Source of the DNA: Candidatus Saccharimonadota bacterium
GTDB lineage: Bacteria; Patescibacteriota; Saccharimonadia; Saccharimonadales; JACOTW01
Assembly (NCBI GenBank): GCA_016178135.1
Contig: JACOTW010000012.1
Coordinates: 1,064-65,063, forward strand
Direction of reading: 5' to 3'
Length of the DNA: 64,000 nt
In this document: positions 2,984 to 44,188 of the stretch, piece by piece
Numbering within the stretch: the stretch's first letter is position 1
Layout: each line of letters opens with the position of its first letter
Made by a program: the position numbers and the translations under genes
Notes under the pieces: model-generated
Seen by the model: the letters and a program-made list of their open reading frames with translations, nothing else
Databases searched by the model: none
What the model was told of the DNA's origin: nothing

Positions 2984-3553
2984 TCAGGCTCTATGGTTTT
3001 TTTTCGGACGAACTAATATAATTAACAGGGTTGCTAAAACAAAAAATAGTACGGAGTAAAATCCTACTTCTCCGTATAATTCAATTTTGTAACCTTCGTT
3101 GAAGTTTAAGACAAAGTAACTGATGGCTGTTGTGGTATAGGCGGCGACCGACAAAAGGGTTGTAGCTAAAATTGCTGCGCGGCTATATAAAGCGGCCGAA
3201 ACCAATATTGGTACAGCGTATAACATAACCGCTCGGCTGGCCATCCCTCGCTGGGTATAGACATTGAATGAGGCGGCTCCTATATCGACAAAAATAAGTG
3301 CAAAGACTAAAGCCTTATAAGCACCAGTGCTATTGATTTTATTTTTGGCGAGATACCAAACGACCGTGGATGTCAGGAATAAAATCGCTGTTACAATCCA
3401 GCGATTTAGCACGGCGTTAGGAGCTATTAATTTCCAGGCATCATAAATAATTGTCTGGGCAGCAAAAAGAAAAACATATAAAAAGTGAACACGCGCGAGC
3501 CTGACTGTGCTTGAGCGTAACCAGCTTTGTTTTTCTTTTTTTGCTAGTGCCAT
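2984..3553 (-). CDS. Hypothetical polytopic membrane protein
   Basis: ORF 2984..3616. The internal ATG at 3553 (MALAKKEKQ...) is preferred because the upstream part overlaps a repeat fragment. Several hydrophobic segments. Confidence 0.5.
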   Translation of the reverse strand: MALAKKEKQSWLRSSTVRLARVHFLYVFLFAAQTIIYDAWKLIAPNAVLNRWIVTAILFLTSTVVWYLAKNKINSTGAYKALVFALIFVDIGAASFNVYTQRGMASRAVMLYAVPILVSAALYSRAAILATTLLSVAAYTTTAISYFVLNFNEGYKIELYGEVGFYSVLFFVLATLLIILVRPKKNHRA

Positions 3554-3565
3554 GCATATCACTTT

Positions 3566-3595
3566 AACACGAATTTCGCACTTTTCCATCGCCTC
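3566..3595. repeat. Orphan fragment of the divergent family-A terminus
   Basis: AACACGAATTTCGCACTTTTCCATCGCCTC matches 6252..6280 (ACACACATTTCGCACTTTTCCATTGCCCC) at most positions. Confidence 0.5.
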
Positions 3596-3739
3596 AATAA
3601 TGGTAATGAGAAGCAAAAAGCCGCGTTCTATAAAGGCTCTAGGCTCAAACTCCAGCTCTACGAATCAGGGTAATGATGTCTAATTTAGGGGCACTGGATA
3701 GACCCCATATGACAACAAACTACACTTCTCAAGGCTAGA

Positions 3740-3897
3740 CTGGACTTACGCAAAGCTCCCCCATCCCCAGATCAATTCATCTTGGCTGGTAGCGATCTGT
3801 CTTCTCTCGATGTAGCTATGGCTACCTCTCCTTTAGCCAAACCACTCCCAACTCGAGCTGATTTAGCCTGGGAACGGGCGATTTTGCGTAAGTCCAG
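3740..3897 (+). mobile_element. Family-A element, copy A2 (158 bp), intergenic
   Basis: Perfect 16-nt inverted termini. Direct TAGA at 3736-3739 and 3898-3901. Confidence 0.9.
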
Positions 3898-3926
3898 TAG
3901 ACCTTGTACTCCTTCGCCGGGGTTGT

Positions 3927-4580
3927 TTAACCCAAGATATTGATAGACCGAGCTAGTACGAGGGCAAGAGTAAAAACTGATACCAAAGCCTGTATTCCCA
4001 TGAGTAGTTTGGCTTGGTGGGTAATGGGTTTAGTGTCCGCGGGCGCAAAGTTAATGCCGTTGGTTGTGGAAAGATATAAATAATCAATAAATCCGGGCTG
4101 CCAATTGGCAAAGTCATCACTCATATCTTGCTGAGTAAATTGAAAGTCTTTGTCGTGTTTAGACCACTTACTGCCAGTTAGGCCAGGGCTGTCGATTTCC
4201 CAATACCAAAGTGCGAAAACGATGATGTTTGTTAGGAATATGGCTACTGCCGCGACCAACAGTTCGCGGCCGGACAAACCCTGGCCGTTTGTAATTAGCA
4301 AACGTGCAACCAGAAAAAACGAAGTAATATTGGCCACCGAAATAAGTGCAAGTAATCCGGTCGAGAGCACGCGGTAAAGGGATTTTGCCTGAACATGGCG
4401 TTTCCTGGCGGTAAAACCGATAATAATAGCCAAAGTAATTTCAGTAACAACGATTAGATTGTGTGGTCCGTAGGTCAGCTCTTTGTTGATAGCCCAGACA
4501 ACGACCTGTAGGACTATAGCAACTGCTAGGGCCGATTGTGCGGCCCAAAGCTCATGGCTTGTTATAGGGTGAACCTTCAT
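3927..4580 (-). CDS. Hypothetical integral membrane protein
   Basis: 217-aa ORF with multiple hydrophobic helices. No motif recognised. Confidence 0.5.
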   Translation of the reverse strand: MKVHPITSHELWAAQSALAVAIVLQVVVWAINKELTYGPHNLIVVTEITLAIIIGFTARKRHVQAKSLYRVLSTGLLALISVANITSFFLVARLLITNGQGLSGRELLVAAVAIFLTNIIVFALWYWEIDSPGLTGSKWSKHDKDFQFTQQDMSDDFANWQPGFIDYLYLSTTNGINFAPADTKPITHQAKLLMGIQALVSVFTLALVLARSINILG

Positions 4581-4912: not shown

Positions 4913-4956
4913 TTTCACACTTGGCTACTCCCTATTAATACTAGAACTAGTACATT

Positions 4957-5424
4957 TTACATTCTGTTGCTGTTTAGAGCAATCTGACCCGTAGCCATTA
5001 ATATACATTTAGGGCGTCCATCTATGATTGGGTTTGATTCTCCTCTGTTGGTTGTGCCTGGAATATAGCGGTGCCATTCGCCTAGTAAATTAGTTTCATT
5101 ATCTTCACATACTTTTATAAGGCTTAATGCTACTGCCTCATAGACATGTCCGGCACTTTGTTCTATCTCTATCTCAGGATAAAGCAAACTAATCACCTCA
5201 CCCCAATCACGGGAATACGCTGTTAAGGCTATTTTTGACATATGACCGTATGTTTTTCCGTTGAGCCTATGACGCACAAAATTAAATAATACTTCTGTAT
5301 CTAATGGGGACGGGTTTGTAGGTACAATAATTGGAGGTAGTAAAAAGTCTGATCTCTCGTTGATCGGTATACCTTGATAGCCCAAAGTTTCGGGGTCGGG
5401 CGACGCCACTTCACGTGTGTTCAT
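4957..5424 (-). CDS. Hypothetical protein
   Basis: 155-aa ORF. No recognisable motif. Confidence 0.45.
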   Translation of the reverse strand: MNTREVASPDPETLGYQGIPINERSDFLLPPIIVPTNPSPLDTEVLFNFVRHRLNGKTYGHMSKIALTAYSRDWGEVISLLYPEIEIEQSAGHVYEAVALSLIKVCEDNETNLLGEWHRYIPGTTNRGESNPIIDGRPKCILMATGQIALNSNRM

Positions 5425-6246: not shown

Positions 6247-6580
6247 TTCCGACACACATTTCGCACTTTTCCATTGCCCCAGTTCACTCCTAACTGGCTA
6301 CAAACTATTGATCTGCCCTCCATGTAGCTACAGCTACCTCTCCATCAGTTCAACAGTTTTCGCTCAGCTATAGCCATTCCAAAACAAAATGACCAAATTT
6401 TGAGTGATGGATGATGAGTCTAAAAACTAGCTTTCTTTGACTAAAGCATATCCGTAGATATGCTGCAGACAAAAAAGTAGTTTTTAGATCATCAGGCGCA
6501 GACAAAAATGGTCATTTTGTTTTGGGATGGCTATAGGCGCAAACTGGCATCAACGGCTAAGTGCGAAATGCGTGTCCGAG
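6247..6580 (+). mobile_element. Composite: divergent family-A element (termini GACACRCATTTCGCAC) interrupted by a family-B-like element
   Basis: 6251-6268 GACACACATTTCGCACTT is the inverted complement of 6559-6576. The interior aligns to A4 (GGCTACAAAC...GTAGCTACAGCTACCTCTCC...CAGTTTTCGCTCAG) up to the nested insertion. Confidence 0.7.
6368..6536. mobile_element. Family-B-like variant element (169 bp) nested inside the composite
   Basis: Termini CTATAGCCATTCCAAAACAAAATGACCA ... TGGTCATTTTGTTTTGGGATGGCTATAG. Confidence 0.75.
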
Positions 6581-6589
6581 TTAAGGTAT

Positions 6590-8482
6590 CTAAAGCTTGC
6601 AAATGGCTAGGGTACATTTGATTTTAACGGATTTTGAAGGACCAGCCGCACGATTACCGTCCCTGTCAACTGCAAAAACCCGATAGTTAAAGTTACTAGT
6701 TTTGTTTATATTGTCTGTGTAATATTGATCATCTGGCGAGTTGACGTATAGCTTAACGGCTGGCTTATTATCTGTACTGCGCCATACCTCGTATCCCTTG
6801 ATCTGGTTATCATCCGTAGCGAATGGCCAAGATACATAGATCTTACACTTAGACTTAGCCGAACAATTATTTTTCCACCAGTTTGTATCAAAACCACTTT
6901 TCATGCTCGCGTTACTTGGCCAAACCGGAGCATTACCACTAACGGTTTGCGTAGTCGTAACCGTAACTACGACACCACTGGATGTTGTATCTAGTCCTTT
7001 ATCATCAGTAGCTTTGGCTTTAAATGTATAGGTGCCTGCCGGATAGTTACTGATACTAAATGAATAGGGGGACGATGTATCGGTGCCGATTTTAGTATTG
7101 GCTGAATAGAATTCAACCTTGCTAATTGTACCATCTTGATCATTCGCACCGGCAGTTAGCGTGAAGTAAGCCGGAGCTACAATTGTTGCCGCTGGATTTT
7201 TTAGGGTTACTGTGGGGGCTATATTATTTGGTGGTGGCGGTGCCGACTTGGCTAATACCGTAATCGATAATGACGTACTGGCTTTATTGTTATTAGAAGA
7301 TGAAGAGTTATCAGTGGCAACTGCACGTAGGCTATGAGTGCCCGGAGCTAAGCCACTAACCGTCGTACTGTAAGGAGCTGTGTTGTTGACCGATATACTG
7401 GTGTCGCCGTTAAAAAACTCTACTTGCTTGATGGCTCCATCGGTGTCATTGGCATTCGCTGATAATGTAATGGAGCTTCCGGCAGCAAACTCTTGACCGT
7501 TGACGGGGCTTGATATGCTGATAGTTGGTGGTAAATTAGTGGTCGAGCCTTTATTATCGCCACTGGTTCGGCACGGTGTACGTGGTCCGTTGAGGTCCAA
7601 ATTCATTAAATAAGCGTCATAGTTTTTGATGGATGCATCTTTACAGCTGGCACTCGTAGGCCAACTACTGGCACCACCTTTATATTCAATTACAAAGACT
7701 GCCTTATTAGCGTTGACAAAAGGCTTGTAAGTATCACATTCATTATATTCATAACATTGCTCTACAATCGCAAAGTCATGGGCGCTTATTACAGATTTGC
7801 CGTTAGGCAGGTTTTTATTGACTAAATCGCCACTATTTTTTAAGGCTACTGATAGATTAAAGCTATGTCCGGTATTGGTAAGAAACTGTAGATAATCTAA
7901 AGTGGTTGTTTCGTTGAGTGGTATATTGCTGGCATTTGTATAGGCATCAACGTTATCTGGTTCTATGCCATCGCAACCCAAGCTACTCATGGTTTGGATG
8001 CGGTTATACATTATGGATCGTACATTGGCTGAACGTGTGTCAACAATAAGTTCGCCCTCCCATCCGGGAAGTTGTCCGAATGTATCACCGGGAAGAAATT
8101 GGCTATGATCTGGTCGCCAATCTTCATCCGTTCCGGCCGAAAAGTAACAAATAACAGTTATGCCCTTGGCCTTAATACTAGCAATTTGGGTAGCATTTGA
8201 GTTGAGGTAATCAAAATCATAAACTTTTGGTCCGGATTCGGCGTCCATGACTTTTTCGTTTGGTGCGCCTTGCAATAACCACGCGAAACGACTATTTGGT
8301 TCCACTGGCTTTAAGGTCGATGCGGCAGAAATGCTAAGTGTTAGATAGGTGCCTATTACCCCAAAAACTATTAAGGCAAGCCACCTTTTACTGATTTTGC
8401 TTATGAATTTATTGGATGACGACCGTAGTTGTTTGGTGGTATTAGATTTTTTTTGCTTAGCAATTTTTGTAGTTTTTTTCAT
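6590..8482 (-). CDS. Secreted GH114-like (endo-alpha-1,4-polygalactosaminidase-type TIM barrel) protein with Ig-like repeats and an FN3-like C-terminus
   Basis: N-terminal signal/TM. VICYFSAGTDEDWRPD ... GWEGELIVDTR ... GCDGIEPDNVDAY resembles the Glyco_hydro_114 pattern. Two repeated about-90-aa beta-rich modules. Confidence 0.6.
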   Translation of the reverse strand: MKKTTKIAKQKKSNTTKQLRSSSNKFISKISKRWLALIVFGVIGTYLTLSISAASTLKPVEPNSRFAWLLQGAPNEKVMDAESGPKVYDFDYLNSNATQIASIKAKGITVICYFSAGTDEDWRPDHSQFLPGDTFGQLPGWEGELIVDTRSANVRSIMYNRIQTMSSLGCDGIEPDNVDAYTNASNIPLNETTTLDYLQFLTNTGHSFNLSVALKNSGDLVNKNLPNGKSVISAHDFAIVEQCYEYNECDTYKPFVNANKAVFVIEYKGGASSWPTSASCKDASIKNYDAYLMNLDLNGPRTPCRTSGDNKGSTTNLPPTISISSPVNGQEFAAGSSITLSANANDTDGAIKQVEFFNGDTSISVNNTAPYSTTVSGLAPGTHSLRAVATDNSSSSNNNKASTSLSITVLAKSAPPPPNNIAPTVTLKNPAATIVAPAYFTLTAGANDQDGTISKVEFYSANTKIGTDTSSPYSFSISNYPAGTYTFKAKATDDKGLDTTSSGVVVTVTTTQTVSGNAPVWPSNASMKSGFDTNWWKNNCSAKSKCKIYVSWPFATDDNQIKGYEVWRSTDNKPAVKLYVNSPDDQYYTDNINKTSNFNYRVFAVDRDGNRAAGPSKSVKIKCTLAICKL

Positions 8483-33650: not shown

Positions 33651-33890
33651 CTGGGCCTGTCGCAAAATCCCTCGTTCCCAGGACGAATCAGCTCGAGCGA
33701 AAACAGTTTTGTCTGAAGGAGAGGTACCCAGGAGGTATAGTCCCCGCAAAACAAATTCGTGGGTTTTTGAAGCAATGATCTTTGAGCCAAAAACTGACTT
33801 TTCCGAGAGAGACATATCCTTAGATACGTTGAACGAGGAAAGGCGGTTTTGGGCCAAAGAGGGTGATTCGAAATTTTGCGACAGGCCCAG
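33651..33890 (-). mobile_element. Composite: family-A element (CTGTCGC subtype) carrying a nested truncated family-B element
   Basis: CTGGGCCTGTCGCAAAATCCC...GGTACCCAGGAG | TATAGTCCCCGCAAAAC...GATTCGAAA | TTTTGCGACAGGCCCAG. Direct TATA at 33647-50 and 33891-94. Confidence 0.85.
33736..33873 (+). mobile_element. Family-B subtype B' (right terminus missing), copy B3, nested in A
   Basis: 138 nt. Differs from B4 at 2 positions by manual alignment. Confidence 0.85.
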
Positions 33891-34641: not shown

Positions 34642-34701
34642 TCCTATTAAATTATAACAATTAGACAAAATTTGCAAAGTTTTGTTTCGGGTGATTATAG
34701 A

Positions 34702-34861
34702 CTGGACCTGTCGCAAAATCCCTCGTTCCCAGGGCGAATCAGCTCGAGCGAAAACAGTTTTATCCGAAGGAGAGGTACCAGGGAGGTACATCGAGAGAGG
34801 AAAAACTGTTTGCAGCCGAGATTAGTCGGTCTGGGGATGAGGGATTTTGCGACAGGTCCAG
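34702..34861 (-). mobile_element. Family-A element, copy A9 (160 bp, CTGTCGC subtype), intergenic
   Basis: Perfect termini. Direct TAGA at 34698-701 and 34862-65. Confidence 0.9.
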
Positions 34862-35462: not shown

Positions 35463-36152
35463 GTGAGCAGTTATAGCCCCCGCAAAACAAATTCGTGGGT
35501 TTTTGAAGCAATGATCTTTGAGTCAAAAACTGACTTTTCCGAGAGAGACATATCCTTAGATACGTTGAACGAGGAAAGGCGGTTTTGGGCCAAAGAGGGT
35601 GATTCGAAAAGAGCTTATTATCTAACACAGTTTGACGCGCTGGAAGCTCTAGACAACGGTGTTGGTAATTGTTTTTCGAAAGCTATGGTTGCATGTGGAA
35701 TAATAGTATTAAAATATGCGGTTGAGCCGTCAATAGTTTATAAAAAGTCGATACATGGCTCTAAAGATACTGCGATTGATAAGCCTACGGACTCAAAAAC
35801 AGGCAAAAAAATCGCGCATGTGGTTGTAGCCGTACCCGGTTCAAATCCAACTACAGATAAATCTATTCCGGGCTTGAATTTTGGAGTAGCAGTTTCCCAA
35901 GGAGTTAAATTTACCCAAACAGATGCAGGTGAAATACTACAGGATTATAATGAACCCGGAGAATTTGTACGTGTTAATGAAACGGGCACAGTGATTGCTA
36001 CTGAAATTGCTACTGAACGGGGTATGTTTGGTGATAGGTGGCGGGATATTGCTCCAGATTATTTACAAGCTTTGGACAGACCTGACCTGGACATAGATCT
36101 CTTAATTGGTAAGCTCAAAGAATCATACCCAGATGATCAAGTTGCGGCATAG
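35463..36152 (+). CDS. Hypothetical protein. The first about 49 codons derive from family-B element B4. Possible Cys-His peptidase-like core.
   Basis: GTG start at 35463. No alternative ATG before residue 75. GNCFSKAMVAC ... AHVVVAV noted, but this is a weak motif. Confidence 0.4.
   Translation: MSSYSPRKTNSWVFEAMIFESKTDFSERDISLDTLNEERRFWAKEGDSKRAYYLTQFDALEALDNGVGNCFSKAMVACGIIVLKYAVEPSIVYKKSIHGSKDTAIDKPTDSKTGKKIAHVVVAVPGSNPTTDKSIPGLNFGVAVSQGVKFTQTDAGEILQDYNEPGEFVRVNETGTVIATEIATERGMFGDRWRDIAPDYLQALDRPDLDIDLLIGKLKESYPDDQVAA
35472..35610 (+). mobile_element. Family-B subtype B' copy B4 (right terminus missing)
   Basis: TATAGCCCCCGCAAAACAAATTCGTGGG...GGGTGATTCGAAA. Confidence 0.85.
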
Positions 36153-36584: not shown

Positions 36585-36628
36585 AACTCAAAAAGTTTAA
36601 CAGATTAGAATAGAATATGCAATATCTA

Positions 36629-36785
36629 TTGGTCTTACGTAAAATCTCTTGTCTCCAGGGTGAATCGGCTCGAGCGAAAACGGTTTTATCCGAAGGAGAC
36701 GTACCCGAGCACATCGATAGTCGATAGAACTGTTTGTAGTCGAGATTAGTCGGTATAGGAATAAGGGAGTTCTAGCTAAGTTCAG
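36629..36785 (-). mobile_element. Family-A element, copy A10 (degenerate termini), between tRNA-Thr and rpmG
   Basis: TTGGTCTTACGTAAAATC...GGGAGTTCTAGCTAAGTTCAG. Ends 3 nt from the tRNA-Thr 3' end. Confidence 0.75.
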
Positions 36786-36928: not shown

Positions 36929-37004
36929 GCCACCTTAGCTCAGTGGCTAGAGCAACACTTTTGTAAAGTGAAGGTCGTCGGTTCGAATCCGACAGGTGGC
37001 TCCA
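36929..37004 (+). tRNA. tRNA-Thr (anticodon UGU), CCA encoded
   Basis: GCCACCTTAGCTCAGTGGCTAGAGCAACACTTTTGTAAAGTGAAGGTCGTCGGTTCGAATCCGACAGGTGGCTCCA. Confidence 0.9.
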
Positions 37005-37013
37005 GTTTTAAAC

Positions 37014-37099
37014 GCAGGGTTAGTGAAGCGGTCAAACACGGCAGACTGTAAATCTGCTGGCTTATGCCTTCGTAGGTTCGAATCCTACACCCTGCACCA
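37014..37099 (+). tRNA. tRNA-Tyr (anticodon GUA), long variable arm, CCA encoded
   Basis: GCAGGGTTAGTGAAGCGGTCAAACACGGCAGACTGTAAATCTGCTGGCTTATGCCTTCGTAGGTTCGAATCCTACACCCTGCACCA. Confidence 0.9.
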
Positions 37100-37163
37100 A
37101 AGCCCTTATGCTGGCCTTGTCTATAAACTTGAGTTATACTAAAATTACATAAAGGAGTAAAAC

Positions 37164-37538
37164 ATGGCTCGCATCAATGAAGTACTACCAATAGTTGTCG
37201 ACCCAAATCATGAACGATTTGGACATATAGGTGAAATGGTTTTCTCAGGTGCTTCTGGTGACGGGACCTGCATCATTAAGTTTGAAGATGGAGAAGAAGC
37301 TCATCTTAATGATGGTTGGCTAACAGGTGTACCGCAGTTTGTAGCACCATTACGAACTGAAGAAGCTGGAGTTCGTCGACTTAAAGACGCATTACCAGAG
37401 ATGCAAAAAGCTCTTAGAGAGCTAGCCGACAAAGTAACTGAGCCGAGAAAGCAACCCCCAGCCGAGGAGACACTTACTACACGTGCAGGTTTCGTTGCCC
37501 TAATTAATAAAGTGCTTTTTGAGACAACAACCAAATAA
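37164..37538 (+). CDS. Hypothetical protein (island cassette 1)
   Basis: 124-aa ORF with AAAGGAG SD 7 nt upstream. Confidence 0.5.
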   Translation: MARINEVLPIVVDPNHERFGHIGEMVFSGASGDGTCIIKFEDGEEAHLNDGWLTGVPQFVAPLRTEEAGVRRLKDALPEMQKALRELADKVTEPRKQPPAEETLTTRAGFVALINKVLFETTTK

Positions 37539-37567
37539 TCCAGGGAGTTTTTTGTTATACTCAGTGT

Positions 37568-38103
37568 ATGGAGAAACCTAAACTACTGCTCATAAAAACT
37601 GGCGGAACGATCGATGGTTGCGTACCTGAATATATATAGAGATTGAGCAAATTGCTAATCTTTTCAATGATTCAGTTAACTTCAGCAAACACATTACTCA
37701 AAGCTTTAAAGCTGCCGTTCAGTTTTCAGAATTCGAAGTCTGCAAGAAGGATAGTCGTAGTATAACTGATAGCGACCGAAGAATTATAAGTGAGGTCATT
37801 GGGCGTGAATTTCAGCAAGGCACTAAGAAGTTTCTGATTACACACGGTACATTTACAATGTCTGAGACAGGTGAATTTCTCATAAACAATCTGCCTAAGG
37901 ATGTTCTGGCTAGTTCCACCATCATATTAACTGGCGCAATGTATCCATGGAACGTTTATGGGTCTGACGCCCCAATGAACTTGGGAGCGTCTATATCCCA
38001 ATTAATTTCCGAGCATGTCAGTGGTGTTTGGATCTGTATGCACGGAAAGTTATTTGACCCACGAAAAGTTAATAAAGATGCTGAAAAGCGTATATTTGAG
38101 TAG
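37568..38103 (+). pseudogene. L-asparaginase-like gene interrupted by a +2 frameshift in a (TA)4 tract
   Basis: Frame 2: MEKPKLLLIKTGGTIDG...EYI then a stop at 37637-39. The next frame continues ...FLITHGTFTMSETG...ILTGAMYP... Deleting one TA restores a 177-aa ORF. Confidence 0.7.
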
Positions 38104-38125
38104 ATCGAGCAAGCGCAAAAAGTAA

Positions 38126-38166
38126 AGTTCTGACCTCAGACATGACCCTGCACCAAAGCATAAGCA
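38126..38166 (+). repeat. tRNA-Tyr 3'-end-like direct repeat R1
   Basis: AGTTCTGACCTCAGACATGACCCTGCACCAAAGCATAAGCA. A 15-nt exact match (ACCCTGCACCAAAGC) to 37089-37103. Confidence 0.8.
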
Positions 38167-38189
38167 CTATAGACTGTGCTTATTTTTTT
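38160..38189 (+). terminator. Rho-independent terminator
   Basis: ATAAGCAC-TATAGACT-GTGCTTAT followed by TTTTTT. Confidence 0.7.
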
Positions 38190-38205
38190 GGCTACAATGT
38201 TGCAC

Positions 38206-39072
38206 ATGAATAAAAAACAACATGGTTTCAGTATCGTTGAATTGTTAATTATATTAGTCGTACTGGGAGCCATAGGGCTTGTAGGGTGGAAGGTTTTCTA
38301 TAGTTCCAGTAGCAATAACATTAACTCTAACACTGGCTCGCAGTCACAGGCTGCAAAAACAGGATCGGGAGAGGAGTCACAAGGCTCGATCTGGCAACAA
38401 ACTGCCACAGGTTGGGAAGCGATCAAAAAAGCACCAGATTGTCCAACTCAGCCAATGCTTAAAGCTCCAGCAGACATTAGTAAAGTCACGGCGATCTTGT
38501 ATCCAGGACAAACAAGAGGTGGTAACTACAAGCCACACGGTGGTTTTCGTTTCGATACTGCCAATGACAATATGGTTACAGTAACGGCTCCACTGGAAGG
38601 CTACATCGTGAAGGGCACACGTTATATTGCTGATGGAGAGAATGAAGTCCAGTATGGTTTTGATATTATGAACAATTGTGGAATTATGTATCGCGTTGGT
38701 CACCTGCGTGAATTACCTGGTAATTTACAGAAAATAGCTGATACATTTCCTGCCCCGAGTTCAAGTTCTATGAACACGAACGTAAACCCCGCAGTATTCA
38801 TAAAACAGGGCGAAGTGTTAGCTACCAAAGTAGGAATAATTTCGGCTCATAATACATTTTTTGACTGGGGTGTCTACGACTACCGCAAAGCAAATGAGGC
38901 CAGTAAGTCGGCAGCTTATCAATCGGCACACGCTGAGGACAAAGAGCTGGCATGGCATGCAGTATGTTGGTTACAAGATGGCTGGTTACCGAACACAGAC
39001 CAGACCAAACTGGTCGCCTTACCTGCAGGCGACCCAACAAGTGGCAAAAAAAGTGACTACTGTAAGCAGTAA
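38206..39072 (+). CDS. Type IV pilin-like protein (prepilin-type N-terminal motif) with an unassigned globular domain
   Basis: MNKKQHG|FSIVELLIILVVLGAIGLVG matches the class III signal / N-methylation motif G-F-(S/T)-x-x-E. Confidence 0.7.
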   Translation: MNKKQHGFSIVELLIILVVLGAIGLVGWKVFYSSSSNNINSNTGSQSQAAKTGSGEESQGSIWQQTATGWEAIKKAPDCPTQPMLKAPADISKVTAILYPGQTRGGNYKPHGGFRFDTANDNMVTVTAPLEGYIVKGTRYIADGENEVQYGFDIMNNCGIMYRVGHLRELPGNLQKIADTFPAPSSSSMNTNVNPAVFIKQGEVLATKVGIISAHNTFFDWGVYDYRKANEASKSAAYQSAHAEDKELAWHAVCWLQDGWLPNTDQTKLVALPAGDPTSGKKSDYCKQ

Positions 39073-39074
39073 AA

Positions 39075-39115
39075 AGTTCGGACCTCAGCAATGATGCTGC
39101 ACCAAGGCATAAGCA
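39075..39115 (+). repeat. tRNA-Tyr 3'-end-like direct repeat R2
   Basis: AGTTCGGACCTCAGCAATGATGCTGCACCAAGGCATAAGCA. Confidence 0.7.
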
Positions 39116-39134
39116 ATGTAATATAAAGGACATC

Positions 39135-39236
39135 ATGGACACAATTATCGTAATTCTGCTTGGTATCATTGTTCTTCAGCTTGGCTTGATTAGAATACGA
39201 ATCGACAAAGTTAACGATCATTCACGCAAAAAGTAA
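39135..39236 (+). CDS. Candidate 33-aa single-TM peptide
   Basis: MDTIIVILLGIIVLQLGLIRIRIDKVNDHSRKK. AAAGGA upstream. Below the ORF-track cutoff. Confidence 0.3.
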   Translation: MDTIIVILLGIIVLQLGLIRIRIDKVNDHSRKK

Positions 39237-39277
39237 AGTTCTGGTTTTTACCATAATACTCCGTCTAGTCATAAGTA
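39237..39277 (+). repeat. tRNA-Tyr 3'-end-like direct repeat R2b (degenerate)
   Basis: The preceding 19 nt CGCAAAAAGTAAAGTTCTG are identical to those at R1. Then ...ACCATAATACTCCGTCTAGTCATAAGTA. Confidence 0.5.
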
Positions 39278-39301
39278 TTTCACAATGTTACGATTGGTGT
39301 C

Positions 39302-39520
39302 ATGAAGTTAATAAAATATGTGTGGCTTGGCAGCATATTAGCTGGAATACTGTTATTTATCGATGATATAGCTGGGACCGATGTAGAAAATGGCGAAGGG
39401 TTGGTCGTAGCCAACAAAGGACTCCTAACAGGTATATACAGCTGGAGATTATTGGCATTAACAGGGATGGTTTTTTTAATAACTTCTTTATTGTTAGTTC
39501 TTAGGATGAGACGCAAATAG
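39302..39520 (+). CDS. Small membrane protein (2 TM)
   Basis: 72-aa ORF with hydrophobic N- and C-terminal helices. Confidence 0.4.
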   Translation: MKLIKYVWLGSILAGILLFIDDIAGTDVENGEGLVVANKGLLTGIYSWRLLALTGMVFLITSLLLVLRMRRK

Positions 39521-39559
39521 TTCTATCGGCGTCGATCACGCTGTACCAAAACATAAGTA
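39519..39559 (+). repeat. tRNA-Tyr 3'-end-like direct repeat R3
   Basis: AGTTCTATCGGCGTCGATCACGCTGTACCAAAACATAAGTA. Confidence 0.6.
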
Positions 39560-39587
39560 CTATCAATCTTTATGTTATTGTTAAGAT

Positions 39588-39827
39588 ATGAAAAAATTTA
39601 TTAGTTTTGCCGTCATTATAATCATATTTATTGCAGTTGGAGTTTACATATGGCAAAGAGATAAAAAAGACCCGCGAACTCAAGACGAAGCCACCAAACA
39701 GGCACAAGAATACAAGCCAGAAGGAACATGCACTCAAGCGTTGGTTTCAGCAGTCCATAAGGCAACAGGTGCAAAATATACATTTAATAGTGGCTGTCTT
39801 GCGCCCGGCTGGGAGCCAGAACGATAA
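39588..39827 (+). CDS. Small membrane-anchored/secreted protein
   Basis: 79-aa ORF. N-terminal MKKFISFAVIIIIFIAVGVYIW anchor. Confidence 0.45.
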   Translation: MKKFISFAVIIIIFIAVGVYIWQRDKKDPRTQDEATKQAQEYKPEGTCTQALVSAVHKATGAKYTFNSGCLAPGWEPER

Positions 39828-39901
39828 GGAATAAATTTCTGGGTTCTAGAGGACTGTCCTCTAACAGATAGTAAGGAGTTGGTTTCAGAAGGCCGTCCTC
39901 T

Positions 39902-39945
39902 AGATTCTGACCTCACCCAAGATGCGGCACCATTTGACAGTATGT
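39902..39945 (+). repeat. tRNA-Tyr 3'-end-like direct repeat R4
   Basis: AGATTCTGACCTCACCCAAGATGCGGCACCATTTGACAGTATG. Confidence 0.55.
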
Positions 39946-39968
39946 AATTCTAGCTGCAATATGAATGG

Positions 39969-40250
39969 ATGATTAGACATCTACGCTGTGAACCTGTTCT
40001 GGACTCGGAACTTGAAGATTGTTTTAATAATGTAGAAAGCTTAGTCGCAGCAAAAATAGCTGCAGAGCAAATATCAGGCACAAACCAGCGTGTGGATTTG
40101 GCTGCAGTCCGGATTATTGAAATTTTCAATAGAGCTGCCGATGAAGGTACGTGCTCCGCTCGTTTAATACTCAACTCCGAAGGTATTTTCGGGCCAGCCT
40201 GCCCACTTAGTATAGATGCATGCCCGTATCAAGCAGCTACTGAGAGTTAG
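39969..40250 (+). CDS. Hypothetical protein
   Basis: 93-aa ORF. Confidence 0.35.
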   Translation: MIRHLRCEPVLDSELEDCFNNVESLVAAKIAAEQISGTNQRVDLAAVRIIEIFNRAADEGTCSARLILNSEGIFGPACPLSIDACPYQAATES

Positions 40251-40331
40251 AAAAATCAATGTCATGCAGTAGGGTTTCCAATTACGAATAACCAAATAAT
40301 TGTACTGAACGGTGCAGCCAATTGGCAAAAA

Positions 40332-40526
40332 GTGCCGTATGCACCATACGAACAAGTGCCTGAGCGTGTCTGGAGGTTTGATGGAACTACAGATGTGCAT
40401 GCAGTTACAGGTAAGGGATACACATCACGTAACCGTTTATTGGTATACGCGGATGGTGAAGATACTAAGTTCACCCAAATTTTTGAAGACGAGTACGACC
40501 CGGCTCCAGAGACATCGCAGATATAG
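40332..40526 (+). CDS. Hypothetical protein (start uncertain; frame open from 40251)
   Basis: 64-aa ORF from GTG. Acidic C-terminus. Confidence 0.35.
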   Translation: MPYAPYEQVPERVWRFDGTTDVHAVTGKGYTSRNRLLVYADGEDTKFTQIFEDEYDPAPETSQI

Positions 40527-40544
40527 CCCCCGCAAAACAAATTC
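40522..40544 (+). repeat. Orphan family-B left terminus
   Basis: TATAGCCCCCGCAAAACAAATTC, 23/23 identical to the B1/B2 terminus. No matching right end nearby. Confidence 0.8.
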
Positions 40545-40568
40545 CCTCACACGGCTTTTATATAGAGT

Positions 40569-40607
40569 AGTTATCGACCTCGACCAAGACCCTGCACAAT
40601 GCAACTC
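40569..40607 (+). repeat. tRNA-Tyr 3'-end-like direct repeat R5
   Basis: AGTTATCGACCTCGACCAAGACCCTGCACAATGCAACTC. Confidence 0.6.
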
Positions 40608-40636
40608 AAAGCTAACCTAGATGCTATAATCGCACT

Positions 40637-40882
40637 ATGGAATTACTAGGATATATTGGCACAGTACTTACTATTACCGCCTTTTTGCCTCAAACTCTAC
40701 AAACGATTAAAACTCGTCAAACGAGAGATATATCCCTACTGACATATATTATTCTTGTGATTAGTGCTTTGGTATGGACGATATATGGTATCGGGACACA
40801 TGCCGCCCCCATTGCTATTACAAATAGCGTGGTCTTCTTGTCGAGCTCAGTGATTCTATTTCTCAAAATAATCGAAAAATAG
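40637..40882 (+). CDS. SemiSWEET / PQ-loop family small sugar transporter
   Basis: 81 aa, 3 TM. AFLPQTLQTIKT PQ motif. Confidence 0.7.
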   Translation: MELLGYIGTVLTITAFLPQTLQTIKTRQTRDISLLTYIILVISALVWTIYGIGTHAAPIAITNSVVFLSSSVILFLKIIEK

Positions 40883-40886
40883 CCCA

Positions 40887-40920
40887 AGTTTCAGTAATAA
40901 ACATGCACCATAACCGTATG
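40887..40920 (+). repeat. tRNA-Tyr 3'-end-like direct repeat R6 (degenerate)
   Basis: AGTTTCAGTAATAAACATGCACCATAACCGTATG. Confidence 0.45.
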
Positions 40921-40970
40921 TGTAATGGATAAATGACGTCAATCTGTTCTTTTTTTGCTAAGATGAATTT

Positions 40971-41527
40971 ATGATTGCAATACCACAGGAACTAATTAAG
41001 GAAATTTCTGATCGTAATAATTCTGGCGTTCTCCTAGTGGCCGTCGATGAGGTGCGGAGGTGCGGGGAAAAGTACGGCTGCAACAGAACTAGCTTCTAAG
41101 CTAGAGGGTAGTCAGATAGTACATATTGACGACTTCTATAAACCAAAGGAACAGAGGATGGAAATAACCGACCAAACTCCAGTTCACATTAATTTTGAGT
41201 TTGAACGGTTAAAACAAGAAGTGCTTGAACCTTTGGGGCGTTTGACCGTAGCTAAACCATACTTCTGCCGGGGAACAGCTCAAAGCTCAACCGAATGGTA
41301 TTGTTGTTGTTGAGGGCCTCGGGACATTGGGAACGGAGCTTAGAGACTATTTCGACTACAAGATTTGGGTCGACTCTCCCGAAGCCATAAGGCGACAACG
41401 AGGCATTGGGCGTGATACTGTGGAATGGACAAGAGTTTGGGACGAAGAATACCTGCCCCAAGATGCTCGTTATGTCAATGAACAGGCACCCCAGAATGTA
41501 GCTGACTGGATACTGAGAAATGAGTAA
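40971..41527 (+). pseudogene. Uridine-kinase-like P-loop kinase broken by two +1 frameshifts
   Basis: Frame 0: MIAIPQELIKEISDRNNSGVLLVAVD. Frame +1: CGGAGKSTAATELA...HIDDFYKP. Frame +2: NGIVVVVEGLGTLGTELRDYFDYKIWVD... Confidence 0.7.
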
Positions 41528-41582
41528 TATTGATACTGCAGCATCCTGGGGATAGGCAGCTTTGGCCAAGTCCAGCTAAAGT

Positions 41583-42236
41583 CTAGATAATAACTCGCTT
41601 GGGGCGTAGAACTCGGCGTGGCTTGGCTGAGCTAGAGACATGTTTCTTGATGCGTTCTTTTATTTGATCAGCTTCGGCCTGCATACCGGCAACTTCATAA
41701 GCGTGAGCTAATAATCCGTAGCTTTCCTGATTCGGCTCAAGTTTAACGGCTCGCTCTAGTTCGTCAAGCATGAGTTTGAAGTTACCCAGTTTTTCTTGAA
41801 CTTTTGCATAGGCAATATGTCTTGCGGCCAGCTCTTCTTCGAGCTTTAGTGCCTCCTCAAAAGCGGTGGCTGCTTTTTGGTAGTTTTCTGTTTCATAATA
41901 TATTAGTCCTAGATTGTGCAGACTTGAGGCCGTGGGCTCAATACTCGAAGCGATTTCAAAACAATCAATAGCGTCTTTGTATTCTCGTTGCTTAGCATAC
42001 AGAATACCTAAACGGTTGTAGGCGGCAGCGTTTTTTTCATCAATCTTAAGAATTGTCAGCAAAGCTTTTTCGGCCCTCAAAAATCTGTTTTCACGCATAC
42101 CCTGGTGAGCAATGTCCCAAAGCTTGCCTAGTTTATCGCTTATTTTACGCGATAGAACTGAAAGTTCTTCATCGCGAATGCGCGTATTGCGATAAACTAA
42201 AATTCCAAATCCTACCACCAAAGCAAGTTCATACAT
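41583..42236 (-). CDS. TPR-repeat protein with N-terminal TM anchor
   Basis: AAYNRLGILYAKQREYKDAIDCFEIASSIEP and further 34-aa repeats. Confidence 0.75.
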   Translation of the reverse strand: MYELALVVGFGILVYRNTRIRDEELSVLSRKISDKLGKLWDIAHQGMRENRFLRAEKALLTILKIDEKNAAAYNRLGILYAKQREYKDAIDCFEIASSIEPTASSLHNLGLIYYETENYQKAATAFEEALKLEEELAARHIAYAKVQEKLGNFKLMLDELERAVKLEPNQESYGLLAHAYEVAGMQAEADQIKERIKKHVSSSAKPRRVLRPKRVII

Positions 42237-43121: not shown

Positions 43122-44188
43122 GAATCCAGTAAATTAAAAAATTCTTCGGGTACTGGCACCTGAAATGTCATGTGCTTACCATTTTTCAGTGTAAGCTCTA
43201 GTTTTTCGGCGTGAAGGTATAGCCGATCAGCGGACTGGCCGTCGTATATCGTATCCCCTACAATAGGATAGCCTAGCTTTTTTAAGTGCACGCGTAGTTG
43301 ATGGGTGTGCTCAGTGCGCGGTTTTAGTTCAACTAAATCATAATTTTTTCCTGATTTAACAACATTGTATTCCGTTTGTGCCGTTTTGCCATTTATGCCA
43401 GTTCTAAATGTCTGTGGATGCTTAGGATTCCGCTCTATAGGCATATCAATAATCGCATGCGCAGGTATAATATGGCCAAAAACCACTGCTTTATAAGTTT
43501 TATATACCTTACGTGTAGAGAATTGCTTTTGAAGCCAGCTAAGCGAAGTATTGTTTTTGGCGCAAATAATAACCCCAGAGGTCGCCCTATCCAGACGATG
43601 AACAATCCCCTCTCGAGTTTGCATGGAAGATTTCTGCGAGTCCGATAAACTGGACTTACCCAAAGCTCCCTCATCCCCAGACCGACTAACCTCGGCTACA
43701 AACAGTTTTTCCTCTCTCGATGTACCTTCAGGTACCTCTCCTTCAGACAAAACTGTTTTCGCTCGAGCTGATTCGCCCTGGGAACGAGGGATTTTGCGTA
43801 AGTCCAGTAAACTAGTATTTTGTTGTCTAGCATGTTTATTCAAGTGATCGAATAGCCAAGTTGCGATGGTTGCTTCGGGATTGAACGCTCCTTTGCTGTG
43901 CGTCAACAACCCAGCTGGTTTATTTATAACAACACAGTCGTCATCTTCGTACAAAACCGGCAATTCTATTCTGGGTATATCTTCAGTTGTATTTGGATCA
44001 AAATCAATGTTAATTTGATCTTCTAACCTTAGTTTATATCCGGTTTTTTTGATCTCGTCTCCTACAGTTATAAACCCTCGGTTGCATAATTTTTGAACAT
44101 GCGCCCTACTGATTTGAGGTAATTTGTTATGTACAAAAACATCAAGCCTCTCTCCTGCAGAGGTTTTAGGCACCGTTACTTGTATCAT
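43118..44188 (-). CDS. rluD: RluD-type 23S rRNA pseudouridine synthase (S4 domain + RluA core) with in-frame family-A element
   Basis: N-terminal S4 domain (ERLDVFV...). Catalytic HRLDRATSGVIICAKN. Confidence 0.85.
   Translation of the reverse strand: MIQVTVPKTSAGERLDVFVHNKLPQISRAHVQKLCNRGFITVGDEIKKTGYKLRLEDQINIDFDPNTTEDIPRIELPVLYEDDDCVVINKPAGLLTHSKGAFNPEATIATWLFDHLNKHARQQNTSLLDLRKIPRSQGESARAKTVLSEGEVPEGTSREEKLFVAEVSRSGDEGALGKSSLSDSQKSSMQTREGIVHRLDRATSGVIICAKNNTSLSWLQKQFSTRKVYKTYKAVVFGHIIPAHAIIDMPIERNPKHPQTFRTGINGKTAQTEYNVVKSGKNYDLVELKPRTEHTHQLRVHLKKLGYPIVGDTIYDGQSADRLYLHAEKLELTLKNGKHMTFQVPVPEEFFNLLDS
43650..43807 (+). mobile_element. Family-A element, copy A11 (158 bp), intragenic in rluD
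   Basis: CTGGACTTACCCAAAG...ATTTTGCGTAAGTCCAG. Direct TAAA at 43646-49 and 43808-11. Confidence 0.9.

Follow-up and report, generated by a model that had tools for sequence, protein, structure and literature searches.

In a 64-kb stretch of Candidatus Saccharimonadota DNA (64,000 nt of contig JACOTW010000012.1; hereafter the window) a tRNA-Tyr gene is followed on its own strand by an array of small genes, which are separated from one another by copies of a conserved 35-nt motif ending in the last 8 nt of the tRNA gene. The same motif was found downstream of tRNA-Tyr in related genomes and in metagenome loci, where it accompanies largely different genes. We consider it probable, with some reserve, that the array was built by serial insertion of small non-autonomous cassettes at the 3' end of tRNA-Tyr by a recombinase that is encoded elsewhere.

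The 35-nt motif and its copies in the window

The array is anchored at tRNA-Tyr(GTA) (37014..37099, plus strand), a gene which ARAGORN confirmed at the position given by an initial annotation of this DNA made from the sequence alone. The last 8 nt of the gene, CTGCACCA (37092-37099, plus strand), make up the core that is common to every repeat, and this 3' end would serve as the attB- or attI-like site of the system. The consensus obtained from many genomes reads AGnAnnGTTCTGACTTCGTnnAnnACG-CTGCACCA-aa, a conserved block of 35 nt of which 112 distinct copies were collected. Only CTGCACCA equals the tRNA-Tyr end (8 nt; 15 nt in copy R1), and the other 27 nt constitute a conserved non-tRNA arm. 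The repeats had initially been described as degenerate copies of the tRNA 3' half including its T-arm, a view that had to be abandoned: an ungapped comparison with the tRNA gives identity only in the last 8-11 nt and no T-arm homology for the left half of the repeat. In the commonest form of the motif G stands where the tRNA has C just before CTGCACCA (67/112 copies), and conservation ends by +2 after CCA in most of the 112 copies.

The window was scored with a hidden Markov model (HMM) built from the 112 copies, 107 of which come from other genomes, and with a sequence-only covariance model (CM) as second scorer. The best copy is R1 (38120..38157, plus strand; HMM 28.4 bits, window-wide E 7e-8; CM 30.9 bits), with its core CTGCACCA at 38148-38155. 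Two earlier observations proved correct, namely the exact 15-nt match ACCCTGCACCAAAGC between the tRNA-Tyr end plus trailer (37089-37103) and R1 (38145-38159), and the identity of the 19 nt, CGCAAAAAGTAAAGTTCTG, that precede R1 and the half repeat R2b alike. A terminator-like hairpin with T-run (ATAAGCAC...GTGCTTAT TTTTTT; 38160..38183, plus strand) lies directly 3' of R1. R2 (39072..39106, plus strand; HMM 20.8 bits, E 2e-5; CM 23.8 bits; core CTGCACCA at 39097-39104) begins at the TAA stop codon of a pilin-like gene and is of a CCTCAGCAATGATG subtype that is also found in the metagenome arrays L106 and L160. In R3 (39516..39550, plus strand; HMM 20.2 bits, E 3e-5; CM 25.1 bits; core CTGTACCA at 39541-39548) the TAG stop of a 72-aa open reading frame (ORF) overlaps the G of GTTC. 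R4 (39904..39933, plus strand; core CGGCACCA at 39925-39932) is diverged, scoring 10.6 bits with the HMM (window-wide E 0.03) and 15.3 bits with the CM (E 0.002). The degenerate R5 (40571..40605, plus strand; core CTGCACAA at 40592-40599) is not significant alone (4.2 bits); it stands in register with R1 at 71% identity, and a repeat search groups R1-R5 as one in-register family. R2b (39231-39248, plus strand) comprises the first (5') 18 nt of the motif only and is not significant either (4.3 bits). Of the seven to eight repeats originally listed, R6 (40887-40920) and the possible eighth copy (41530-41550) were detected neither by HMM nor by CM, so that the window holds four significant copies (R1-R4), the degenerate R5 and the half copy R2b.

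By HMM and pattern scan the motif is absent from all other parts of the 64-kb window. The right half of the consensus, allowing ≤3 mismatches, occurs twice in the 64 kb, both times in the array, compared with 0.02 occurrences expected; the left half alone is not above chance in the window (5 found, 3.7 expected). From the tRNA-proximal to the distal end the scores run 28.4, 20.8, 20.2, 10.6, 4.2 and 0 bits, and because repeat quality falls steadily away from the tRNA and two genes are broken, the window array looks old.

A second module, CGTTAGAAC, is found exactly 20 or 40 nt after CCA in 16 of the 112 junctions (0.6 expected) and also after three tRNA-Tyr genes. It lies within the conserved string ...ATAGAGCATTnGGTACGTTAGAAC, and the +40 class has an extra 20-nt hairpin. 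Its GTTAGAAC is the inverse of the motif's GTTCTAAC, which makes full junctions 57 or 77 nt long. The module could be the site's right arm or belong to a promoter; in several copies TTGTGG-N17-TATAAT can be read there.

Linkage to tRNA-Tyr across the lineage

A total of 80 Saccharibacteria loci (+/-10 kb, one per species, ~1.2 Mb) were fetched by their L33 anchor. The metagenome sample came from a degenerate-pattern scan without gene anchor, which returned 120 loci, 80 of them with true copies. Besides the window, 17 of the 80 species loci carry the motif, the largest array being that of L064 with 11 copies. In the window and the 13 other genome loci in which tRNA-Tyr was called, each of the 32 copies is found 3' of the tRNA gene and in its orientation (14/14 loci). 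The metagenome loci gave the same picture: tRNA-Tyr is present in 31 of the 80 true loci, all copies are located downstream on its strand in 31/31, and no locus has copies on both strands. Within the scanned loci the motif is thus not dispersed; in the 1.2 Mb covered by the relatives' loci it occurs only downstream of tRNA-Tyr. A shared terminator motif spread over the genome, which had been considered as an explanation of the repeats, is not what we found, the motif being confined to the array within the window and linked to tRNA-Tyr in the loci of relatives. The 8-mer CTGCACCA was counted 27 times in sense and once in antisense orientation in 146 kb of variable region, compared with 31 times in 1.8 Mb elsewhere; in this region it is ~tenfold enriched in sense orientation and essentially missing in antisense.

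Among the metagenome loci, the sole exception to the linkage where it could be tested is L165, in which a motif-ending cassette (6526-7203) is located downstream of tRNA-Gly(TCC). This tRNA ends in CCGCACCA, a 7/8 match to the core, and going by this sequence an imperfect match to the core is evidently sufficient for a secondary site.

Empty and filled sites

The tRNA-Tyr gene is part of a conserved neighborhood that exists in two arrangements. In the first (e.g. L129) rluD-holB-TPR, the pair tRNA-Thr(TGT)-tRNA-Tyr, the variable region and tRNA-Thr(GGT)-L33 follow one another, all co-directional; in the second (e.g. the window) the block formed by tRNA-Thr(TGT), tRNA-Tyr and the variable region is inverted. 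The tRNA-Thr(TGT)/tRNA-Tyr pair recurs in relatives in either orientation, and moves and inverts together with the array. The inverted block spans 36929-41550 in the window and 3839-12420 in L129, and the species divide about evenly between the two orientations. From tRNA-Tyr to the next conserved gene there are 6 to 7233 nt where this is the TPR gene, which bounds the variable region in 23 loci, and 118 to 6474 nt where it is L33.

Empty sites were found in which tRNA-Thr(GGT) lies within a few nt of tRNA-Tyr (L012, L015, L016, L019) or the TPR gene follows after 6 nt (L040). At filled sites 0.2 to >7 kb of unrelated cassettes stand after tRNA-Tyr, and their content is almost wholly different between species. 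Homology between genomes stops at the last base of tRNA-Tyr (+0 to +3).

A GC-rich insert of ~130-150 nt with inverted ends was noticed after tRNA-Tyr and its terminator in L011, L020, L036, L055, L071, L058, L008 and L035, and inserts of the same type are present in L129 at 3994-4144 and 4944-5094. They end in an exact 16-20-nt copy of the tRNA end, which starts in the T loop (GAATCC...CACCA), have no Rfam match and are distinct from the 35-nt cassette motif. Judged by these features, they look like miniature integrated elements with a classic att duplication.

Cassettes as core-to-core units

The majority of motif copies (88/112) come after an ORF of ≥40 aa on the same strand, with the stop codon positioned between -45 and +12 nt relative to GTTC; most frequently a TAG overlaps the G of GTTC. 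The spacing between copies has a median of 484 nt (interquartile range 357-641, 86 intervals), and in other genomes many copies are followed by a terminator-like hairpin, with a -10 box further on, a few nt upstream of the next ATG. Taking the intervals between detected cores as cassettes, 13 of 90 have a DNA-level relative in another array and 77 have none.

A cassette with a 65-aa ORF is common to L064 and L106 (~97% identity over ~370 nt). The identity starts at GCTGCACCA|CGTTTT and stops at the next GCTGCACCAAA, with unrelated arms and cassettes on the flanks; the homology thereby begins at CTGCACCA and takes in the 40 nt before GTTAGAAC. A Zn-ribbon cassette stands first after the genuine tRNA-Tyr in L013, L093, L154 and L067; in L112 and L106 its place is behind the motif of another cassette. 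L013 and L112 share homology here from CCCTGCACCA onward, and two cassettes that adjoin each other in L112 are separated in L013 by an extra DUF308 cassette. The boundaries of these units differ from transcript boundaries: a unit encloses its promoter, and the terminator belongs to the following unit, beyond the core. This argues against an RNA or cDNA origin. The boundaries are consistent with a circular DNA form carrying ORF, arm, core and terminator without interruption.

Mobile inserts of a second kind make use of the array as well, given that a degenerate motif copy in L141 is interrupted (~3090-4075, compared with L013 ~7740-7770) by a 985-bp insertion with 17-nt terminal inverted repeats (CCCATGACAGCAAGTAA) and a TTCTGAC duplication at its flanks. 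This insertion carries a 91-aa gene and, on the opposite strand, a retropepsin-like 142-aa gene.

Direct repeats with the 3' end of tRNA-Tyr are familiar from E. coli tyrT, where 178-bp repeats with a small ORF follow directly downstream of the gene and the units are duplicated copies. A comparable origin of the array, in which the tRNA 3' end and the spacer would have undergone local duplication and unequal crossing-over without any mobility, might be suggested by the direct co-oriented repeats adjoining tRNA-Tyr and by the 15 nt of tRNA and trailer in R1. It is contradicted by the units between the repeats, which are genes unrelated in sequence and coding content. The repeat is moreover a lineage-wide motif that is found in many species with different cargo, and some cassettes are common to arrays at different positions; we regard this origin as very improbable.

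Proposed mechanism and alternatives

If cassettes are inserted serially at tRNA-Tyr, each module would at some stage exist as a circle. Starting from the core CTGCACCA, the circle would carry a promoter, preceded in many cases by a terminator-like hairpin, then one or occasionally two small genes with the stop codon, and finally the 27-nt conserved arm (GTTCTGACTTCGTnnAnnACG), which would close it back onto the core. By recombining with the last 8 nt of tRNA-Tyr, to which it is identical, the module core would bring the new module next to the tRNA; the insertion would regenerate the tRNA and supply it with the terminator of the module, and older modules would be pushed outward, each still ending in arm and core. 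The enzyme would be a site-specific recombinase acting in trans, for which a tyrosine recombinase is our default guess because a 6-8-nt identical core fits one. The cargo, which we count in favor of such a process, is typical of cassette platforms: across the arrays we found YafQ, PIN/RHH and ParE toxin-antitoxin pairs, HAD, SDR, NUDIX-like, AAA_33/zeta-like and DUF308 proteins, small membrane or secreted proteins and a paralogue of tyrosyl-tRNA synthetase (TyrRS). Within the variable region of L129 (7962-9032, minus strand) this paralogue is a full synthetase with Pfam tRNA-synt_1b and the SYY C-terminal domain; an HNH endonuclease gene is located in the same locus directly upstream of the tRNA-Thr/Tyr pair (3424-3834).

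Several results weigh against serial insertion by a recombinase. Neither the 64-kb window nor ~2 Mb of related loci yielded a tyrosine, serine or HUH recombinase when screened with a regular expression for catalytic motifs, jackhmmer over 2884 ORFs from 212 loci and Pfam on 40 variable-region proteins, among them the 30 largest. The jackhmmer queries were XerD, gamma-delta resolvase and IS608 TnpA, and because they missed a large serine recombinase in L205, an unrelated high-GC false-positive locus, the absence of a recombinase from the loci is only moderately established. Apart from that serine recombinase, the only recombinase or transposase hit was a Mutator-type transposase fragment in L044. 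In agreement with the initial annotation, no integrase-like ORF was seen in the window by regular expression or jackhmmer, at the same limited sensitivity. Neither a circular cassette contig nor a short metagenome contig with terminal overlaps was found; phage contigs likewise yielded no case of the motif, of the tRNA-Tyr end or of the second module. A matching phage source, which had been proposed as a thing to look for, did not emerge from the IMG/VR scans: the motif gave 6 matches at chance level with low HMM scores, so that phages and plasmids were dropped as source, and 0 matches were obtained for the two tRNA-Tyr 3' ends and for the second module. Furthermore, 86% of the copies have no inverted partner arm to the right of the core, and a one-sided site of this kind is unusual for a simple tyrosine-recombinase core site. 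In the largest array, L064, the repeats do not decay with distance from the tRNA, and microhomology-mediated joining would also give breaks at a 9-11-nt identical core.

Another possible source of such an array are elements with an integrase of their own (prophages, tycheposon-like or integrative mobilizable elements), which would have integrated serially in tRNA-Tyr and eroded, leaving the repeats as attR scars. Serial tRNA integration, partial tRNA copies and degraded remnants are documented for the tycheposons of Prochlorococcus (bioRxiv 10.1101/2020.12.28.424599), and multiple att-like copies near a tRNA for a Prochlorococcus island (PMC2784084). The pseudogenes in the window array would suit this origin, as would the 130-150-nt inserts of relatives with their att-like tRNA-end copies. 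However, the spacings between copies have a regularity far beyond what random erosion would leave, an ORF stop directly adjoins the motif in 88 of the 112 copies, and the screens of the ~2 Mb of loci yielded zero integrase fragments. The tRNA repeat measures 8 nt and not ~40 nt, the other 27 nt being a non-tRNA arm common across species, and intact small cassettes move as units, which taken together leads us to consider erosion of larger elements quite unlikely.

Alternatively, the motif may act in the transcript, as a 3'-untranslated-region or transcript-end element of a tRNA-linked operon that provides a ...CACCA end plus terminator for processing or stabilization. No dedicated recombinase would then be needed; cassettes would be imported by transformation, with recombination in the tRNA on one side and short-homology or illegitimate joining at the motif on the other. 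Saccharibacteria have been reported to be naturally transformable. Such a role would agree with the strict co-orientation of the copies with the tRNA and their placement directly after stop codons, with the terminator-like hairpins after many of them, with the likely ancestral position of the array inside a co-directional string tRNA-Thr / tRNA-Tyr / tRNA-Thr(GGT) / L33, and with the lack of a recombinase in the screened loci. The flanking tRNAs, which are 75-92% identical between species, would be good homology anchors, and the breakpoints fall in the longest identical stretch, the core. Against it stands the lack of a conserved fold. A hairpin, whether RNA or attC-like, was discarded as the defining feature of the motif: RNAalifold gave no consensus structure, and a helix drawn by hand over columns 8-15 and 19-27 reaches 67% pairing, which does not clearly exceed the controls, as 18 of 500 shuffles were as good. 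The motif is conserved in sequence, not in fold. It also has no 5' acceptor-strand partner and hence is no tRNA mimic, and an Rfam search of four related loci (E ≤ 0.1) returned tRNAs only, with no tmRNA called by ARAGORN. As to the import by transformation, 9-11 nt of identity are far below the usual RecA-type requirement, and the motif cassette at the core-like end of tRNA-Gly is left unexplained. We therefore judge the transcript-end element unlikely and keep to the serial insertion of cassettes at tRNA-Tyr.

Comparison with known systems

Like an integron, the arrays have a fixed chromosomal entry point and consist of co-oriented, mostly single-ORF cassettes with one site right after each ORF; cassette diversity between genomes is very high, and toxin-antitoxin and unknown small genes are numerous. 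Integron arrays without a neighboring integrase exist as well, as clusters of attC sites lacking integron-integrases (CALINs; PMC4889954). The attC sites of integrons measure 57-141 bp and form an imperfect, hairpin-folding palindrome between RYYYAAC and GTTRRRY (PMC3053210), and in ~14% of the junctions studied here TTCTAAC and GTTAGAA are found 57 or 77 nt apart, each agreeing with RYYYAAC...GTTRRRY in 6/7 positions. In contrast to integrons, the right-hand GTTAGAAC box is present in only 16/112 junctions, and no intI was found in the 80 genome loci, the 120 metagenome loci and the window, in a screen that was not exhaustive and left IntI-specific features untested. The entry point is the 3' end of a tRNA, and the site is conserved in sequence without a supported fold. 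Boundaries are located at CTGCACCA, 20-40 nt upstream of the GTTAGAAC box, and not at G|TTRRRY (L064/L106 pair); the cassettes carry their own promoters, and the host belongs to a Patescibacteria lineage.

The streamlined genome, a hypervariable island at a tRNA, tRNA-end copies between the units and an adaptive accessory cargo are features shared with the tycheposons (bioRxiv 10.1101/2020.12.28.424599), and the outward displacement of older insertions by newer ones would be another. With tRNA-targeting elements in general the arrays have in common the empty site in relatives and the insertion exactly at the tRNA 3' end. Tycheposons, however, are kilobases long, possess their own tyrosine recombinase and replication genes and carry partial tRNAs matching a ~40-nt attachment site (bioRxiv 10.1101/2020.12.28.424599), whereas our units are ~0.25-1 kb in length and no mobility genes were found in any array. 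Only 8 nt (15 in R1) are repeated here in addition to the non-tRNA arm, which is enough for a crossover core but much shorter than the usual att blocks.

Cis-mobilizable elements (CIMEs) and integrative mobilizable elements are bounded by att sites, have no recombinase of their own, depend on the integrase of a helper and accumulate in tandem at tRNA-type targets. The array cassettes are similarly non-autonomous, have att-like boundaries and are stacked in tandem at a tRNA, but CIMEs are multi-gene islands mobilized with an adjacent integrative and conjugative element, whereas the cassettes are single genes with no helper seen at or near the arrays. Xer-dependent modules, such as the integrative mobile elements exploiting Xer (IMEX) and the pdif modules of Acinetobacter plasmids, are small, bounded by short conserved sites and served by a host recombinase outside the module. 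The array cassettes likewise are small gene modules between short conserved sites with the enzyme not in the module; however, the motif does not have the two inverted 11-nt arms and 6-nt spacer of a dif-like site, and the arrays are located at a tRNA and not at dif or on plasmids.

The system thus works like an integron and like tycheposon accretion without belonging to either: intI and an element-borne integrase were not found in the screened loci, no attC fold is supported, the crossover is not at GTTRRRY, and the repeated part of the tRNA is only 8 nt long. In their core, both readings put forward by the initial annotation, serial insertion at tRNA-Tyr and an integron-like array without a neighboring integrase, are backed by empty and filled sites, by cassettes with different neighbors and by homology ending at the 8-nt core; an integron in the strict sense is not. 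In the literature we found neither an account of this tRNA-Tyr array of Saccharibacteria nor one of integron-like systems from Saccharibacteria or other Patescibacteria. We rate the recombination site as new and the process, site-specific cassette accretion, as of a known kind. With a chance that we place a little short of even, Saccharibacteria own a cassette-capture platform of their own, an independent analogue of the integron with the last 8 nt of the tRNA-Tyr gene as docking site, a new 35-nt one-sided site and an enzyme encoded elsewhere, maybe of an unexpected kind or part of the host machinery (Xer, transformation-linked). It would be the first of its type in the Candidate Phyla Radiation and a main route of accessory-gene trade.

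Gene content and surroundings of the window array

From 37100 to ~41550 the window contains small plus-strand ORFs only. The ORFs that had been listed for this region are present, and Pfam backs the asparaginase fragment, the pilin-type methylation signal and the SemiSWEET assignment. Cassette 1 (37100..38155), nearest to the tRNA, carries a 124-aa protein of unassigned function (37164-37538) and an N-terminally broken asparaginase-like gene (~37570-38103; Pfam Asparaginase, E 1.8e-11), with a promoter-like site at 37117-37145. For the 124-aa protein only 8 homologues were found, in other genomic contexts without the motif; the three contexts that were fetched (L209-L211) have neither motif nor tRNA-Tyr and are uninformative on the mechanism. 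Cassette 2 (38156..39104; promoter-like site at 38170-38198) encodes a 288-aa protein (38206-39072) with a type IV pilin-like N-terminal methylation signal (Pfam N_methyl, E 7e-5). Cassette 3 (39105..39548), possibly two fused cassettes, comprises a 33-aa ORF (39135-39236), R2b and a 72-aa membrane-like ORF (39302-39520). The 79-aa protein of cassette 4 (39549..39932; ORF 39588-39827) has an N-terminal hydrophobic segment and no Pfam family above the curated cut-off. Cassette 5 (39933..40599) contains a 93-aa ORF (39969-40250) and a 64-aa ORF (40332-40526) without known domains in Pfam. The distal genes at 40637..41527, a SemiSWEET (40637-40882; Pfam PQ-loop/MtN3) and a P-loop kinase-like gene split over three frames (40971-41527), have no supported repeat and are probably the oldest, decayed cassettes. 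TATAAT-like boxes were noted ~7-10 nt before the ATG of several cassette genes (38198-38206, 39127-39135, 40624-40637 and similar), and their closeness to the start codon suggests leaderless transcripts.

Directly upstream of tRNA-Tyr lies tRNA-Thr(TGT) (36929..37004, plus strand; ARAGORN), preceded on the minus strand by tRNA-Thr(GGT), the L33 gene and tRNA-Trp. At its distal end the variable region is bounded by a conserved gene for a membrane-anchored TPR protein (41583..42236, minus strand; Pfam TPR families), the first of a conserved minus-strand block that continues with holB and rluD. The G+C content of the array (0.37-0.47) shows no difference from the flanks, so that the G+C contrast proposed as a check is not seen. 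The window is 99.95% identical to contig JACPYE010000006.1 (GCA_016196105.1), a Candidatus Saccharibacteria metagenome-assembled genome.

Two families of short repeats were noticed in the vicinity. A 141-nt repeat resembling a miniature inverted-repeat transposable element (TATAGCCCCCGCAAAACAAATTCGTGGG...GGGTGATTCGAAA) has two copies upstream of the tRNA cluster (35470-35610 and 33736-33873) and a remnant at 40524-40546, and occurs also in L001 (6029-6190). In GCA_016196105.1 a reversed copy substitutes for window positions 40395-40543, inside the 64-aa-ORF cassette (cassette 5), a swap that represents either population variation or a repeat-induced assembly difference. The second family (core GAATCAGCTCGAGCGAAAACAGTTTTATCCGAAGGAGAGGTACC) has at least 4 copies (33661-33728, 34701-34844, 36617-36727 and ~43600-43760). 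The last of these lies reversed and in frame inside rluD and extends its protein to 356 aa, compared with ~288-298 aa in relatives, the frame being unbroken.

Significance for Saccharibacteria

Saccharibacteria and other Patescibacteria are obligate epibionts with ~1-Mb genomes and few recognized mobile elements. The locus described here is a conserved and easily located hotspot, bordered by tRNA-Thr/tRNA-Tyr on one side and by tRNA-Thr(GGT)/L33 or the TPR-holB genes on the other, and it seems to be a place where individual genes are stacked up and traded as discrete modules, among them toxin-antitoxin pairs, genes for small surface or secreted proteins and transporter genes. In metagenomes, the 35-nt motif can serve as a practical probe for accessory genes of Saccharibacteria. 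If the proposed insertion of cassettes is true, it would give a concrete handle for finding the responsible recombinase and a natural landing pad for the engineering of these hard-to-manipulate bacteria, and it would carry the integron principle, a fixed docking site combined with promiscuous cassettes, to a phylum and a site chemistry that are both new to it.

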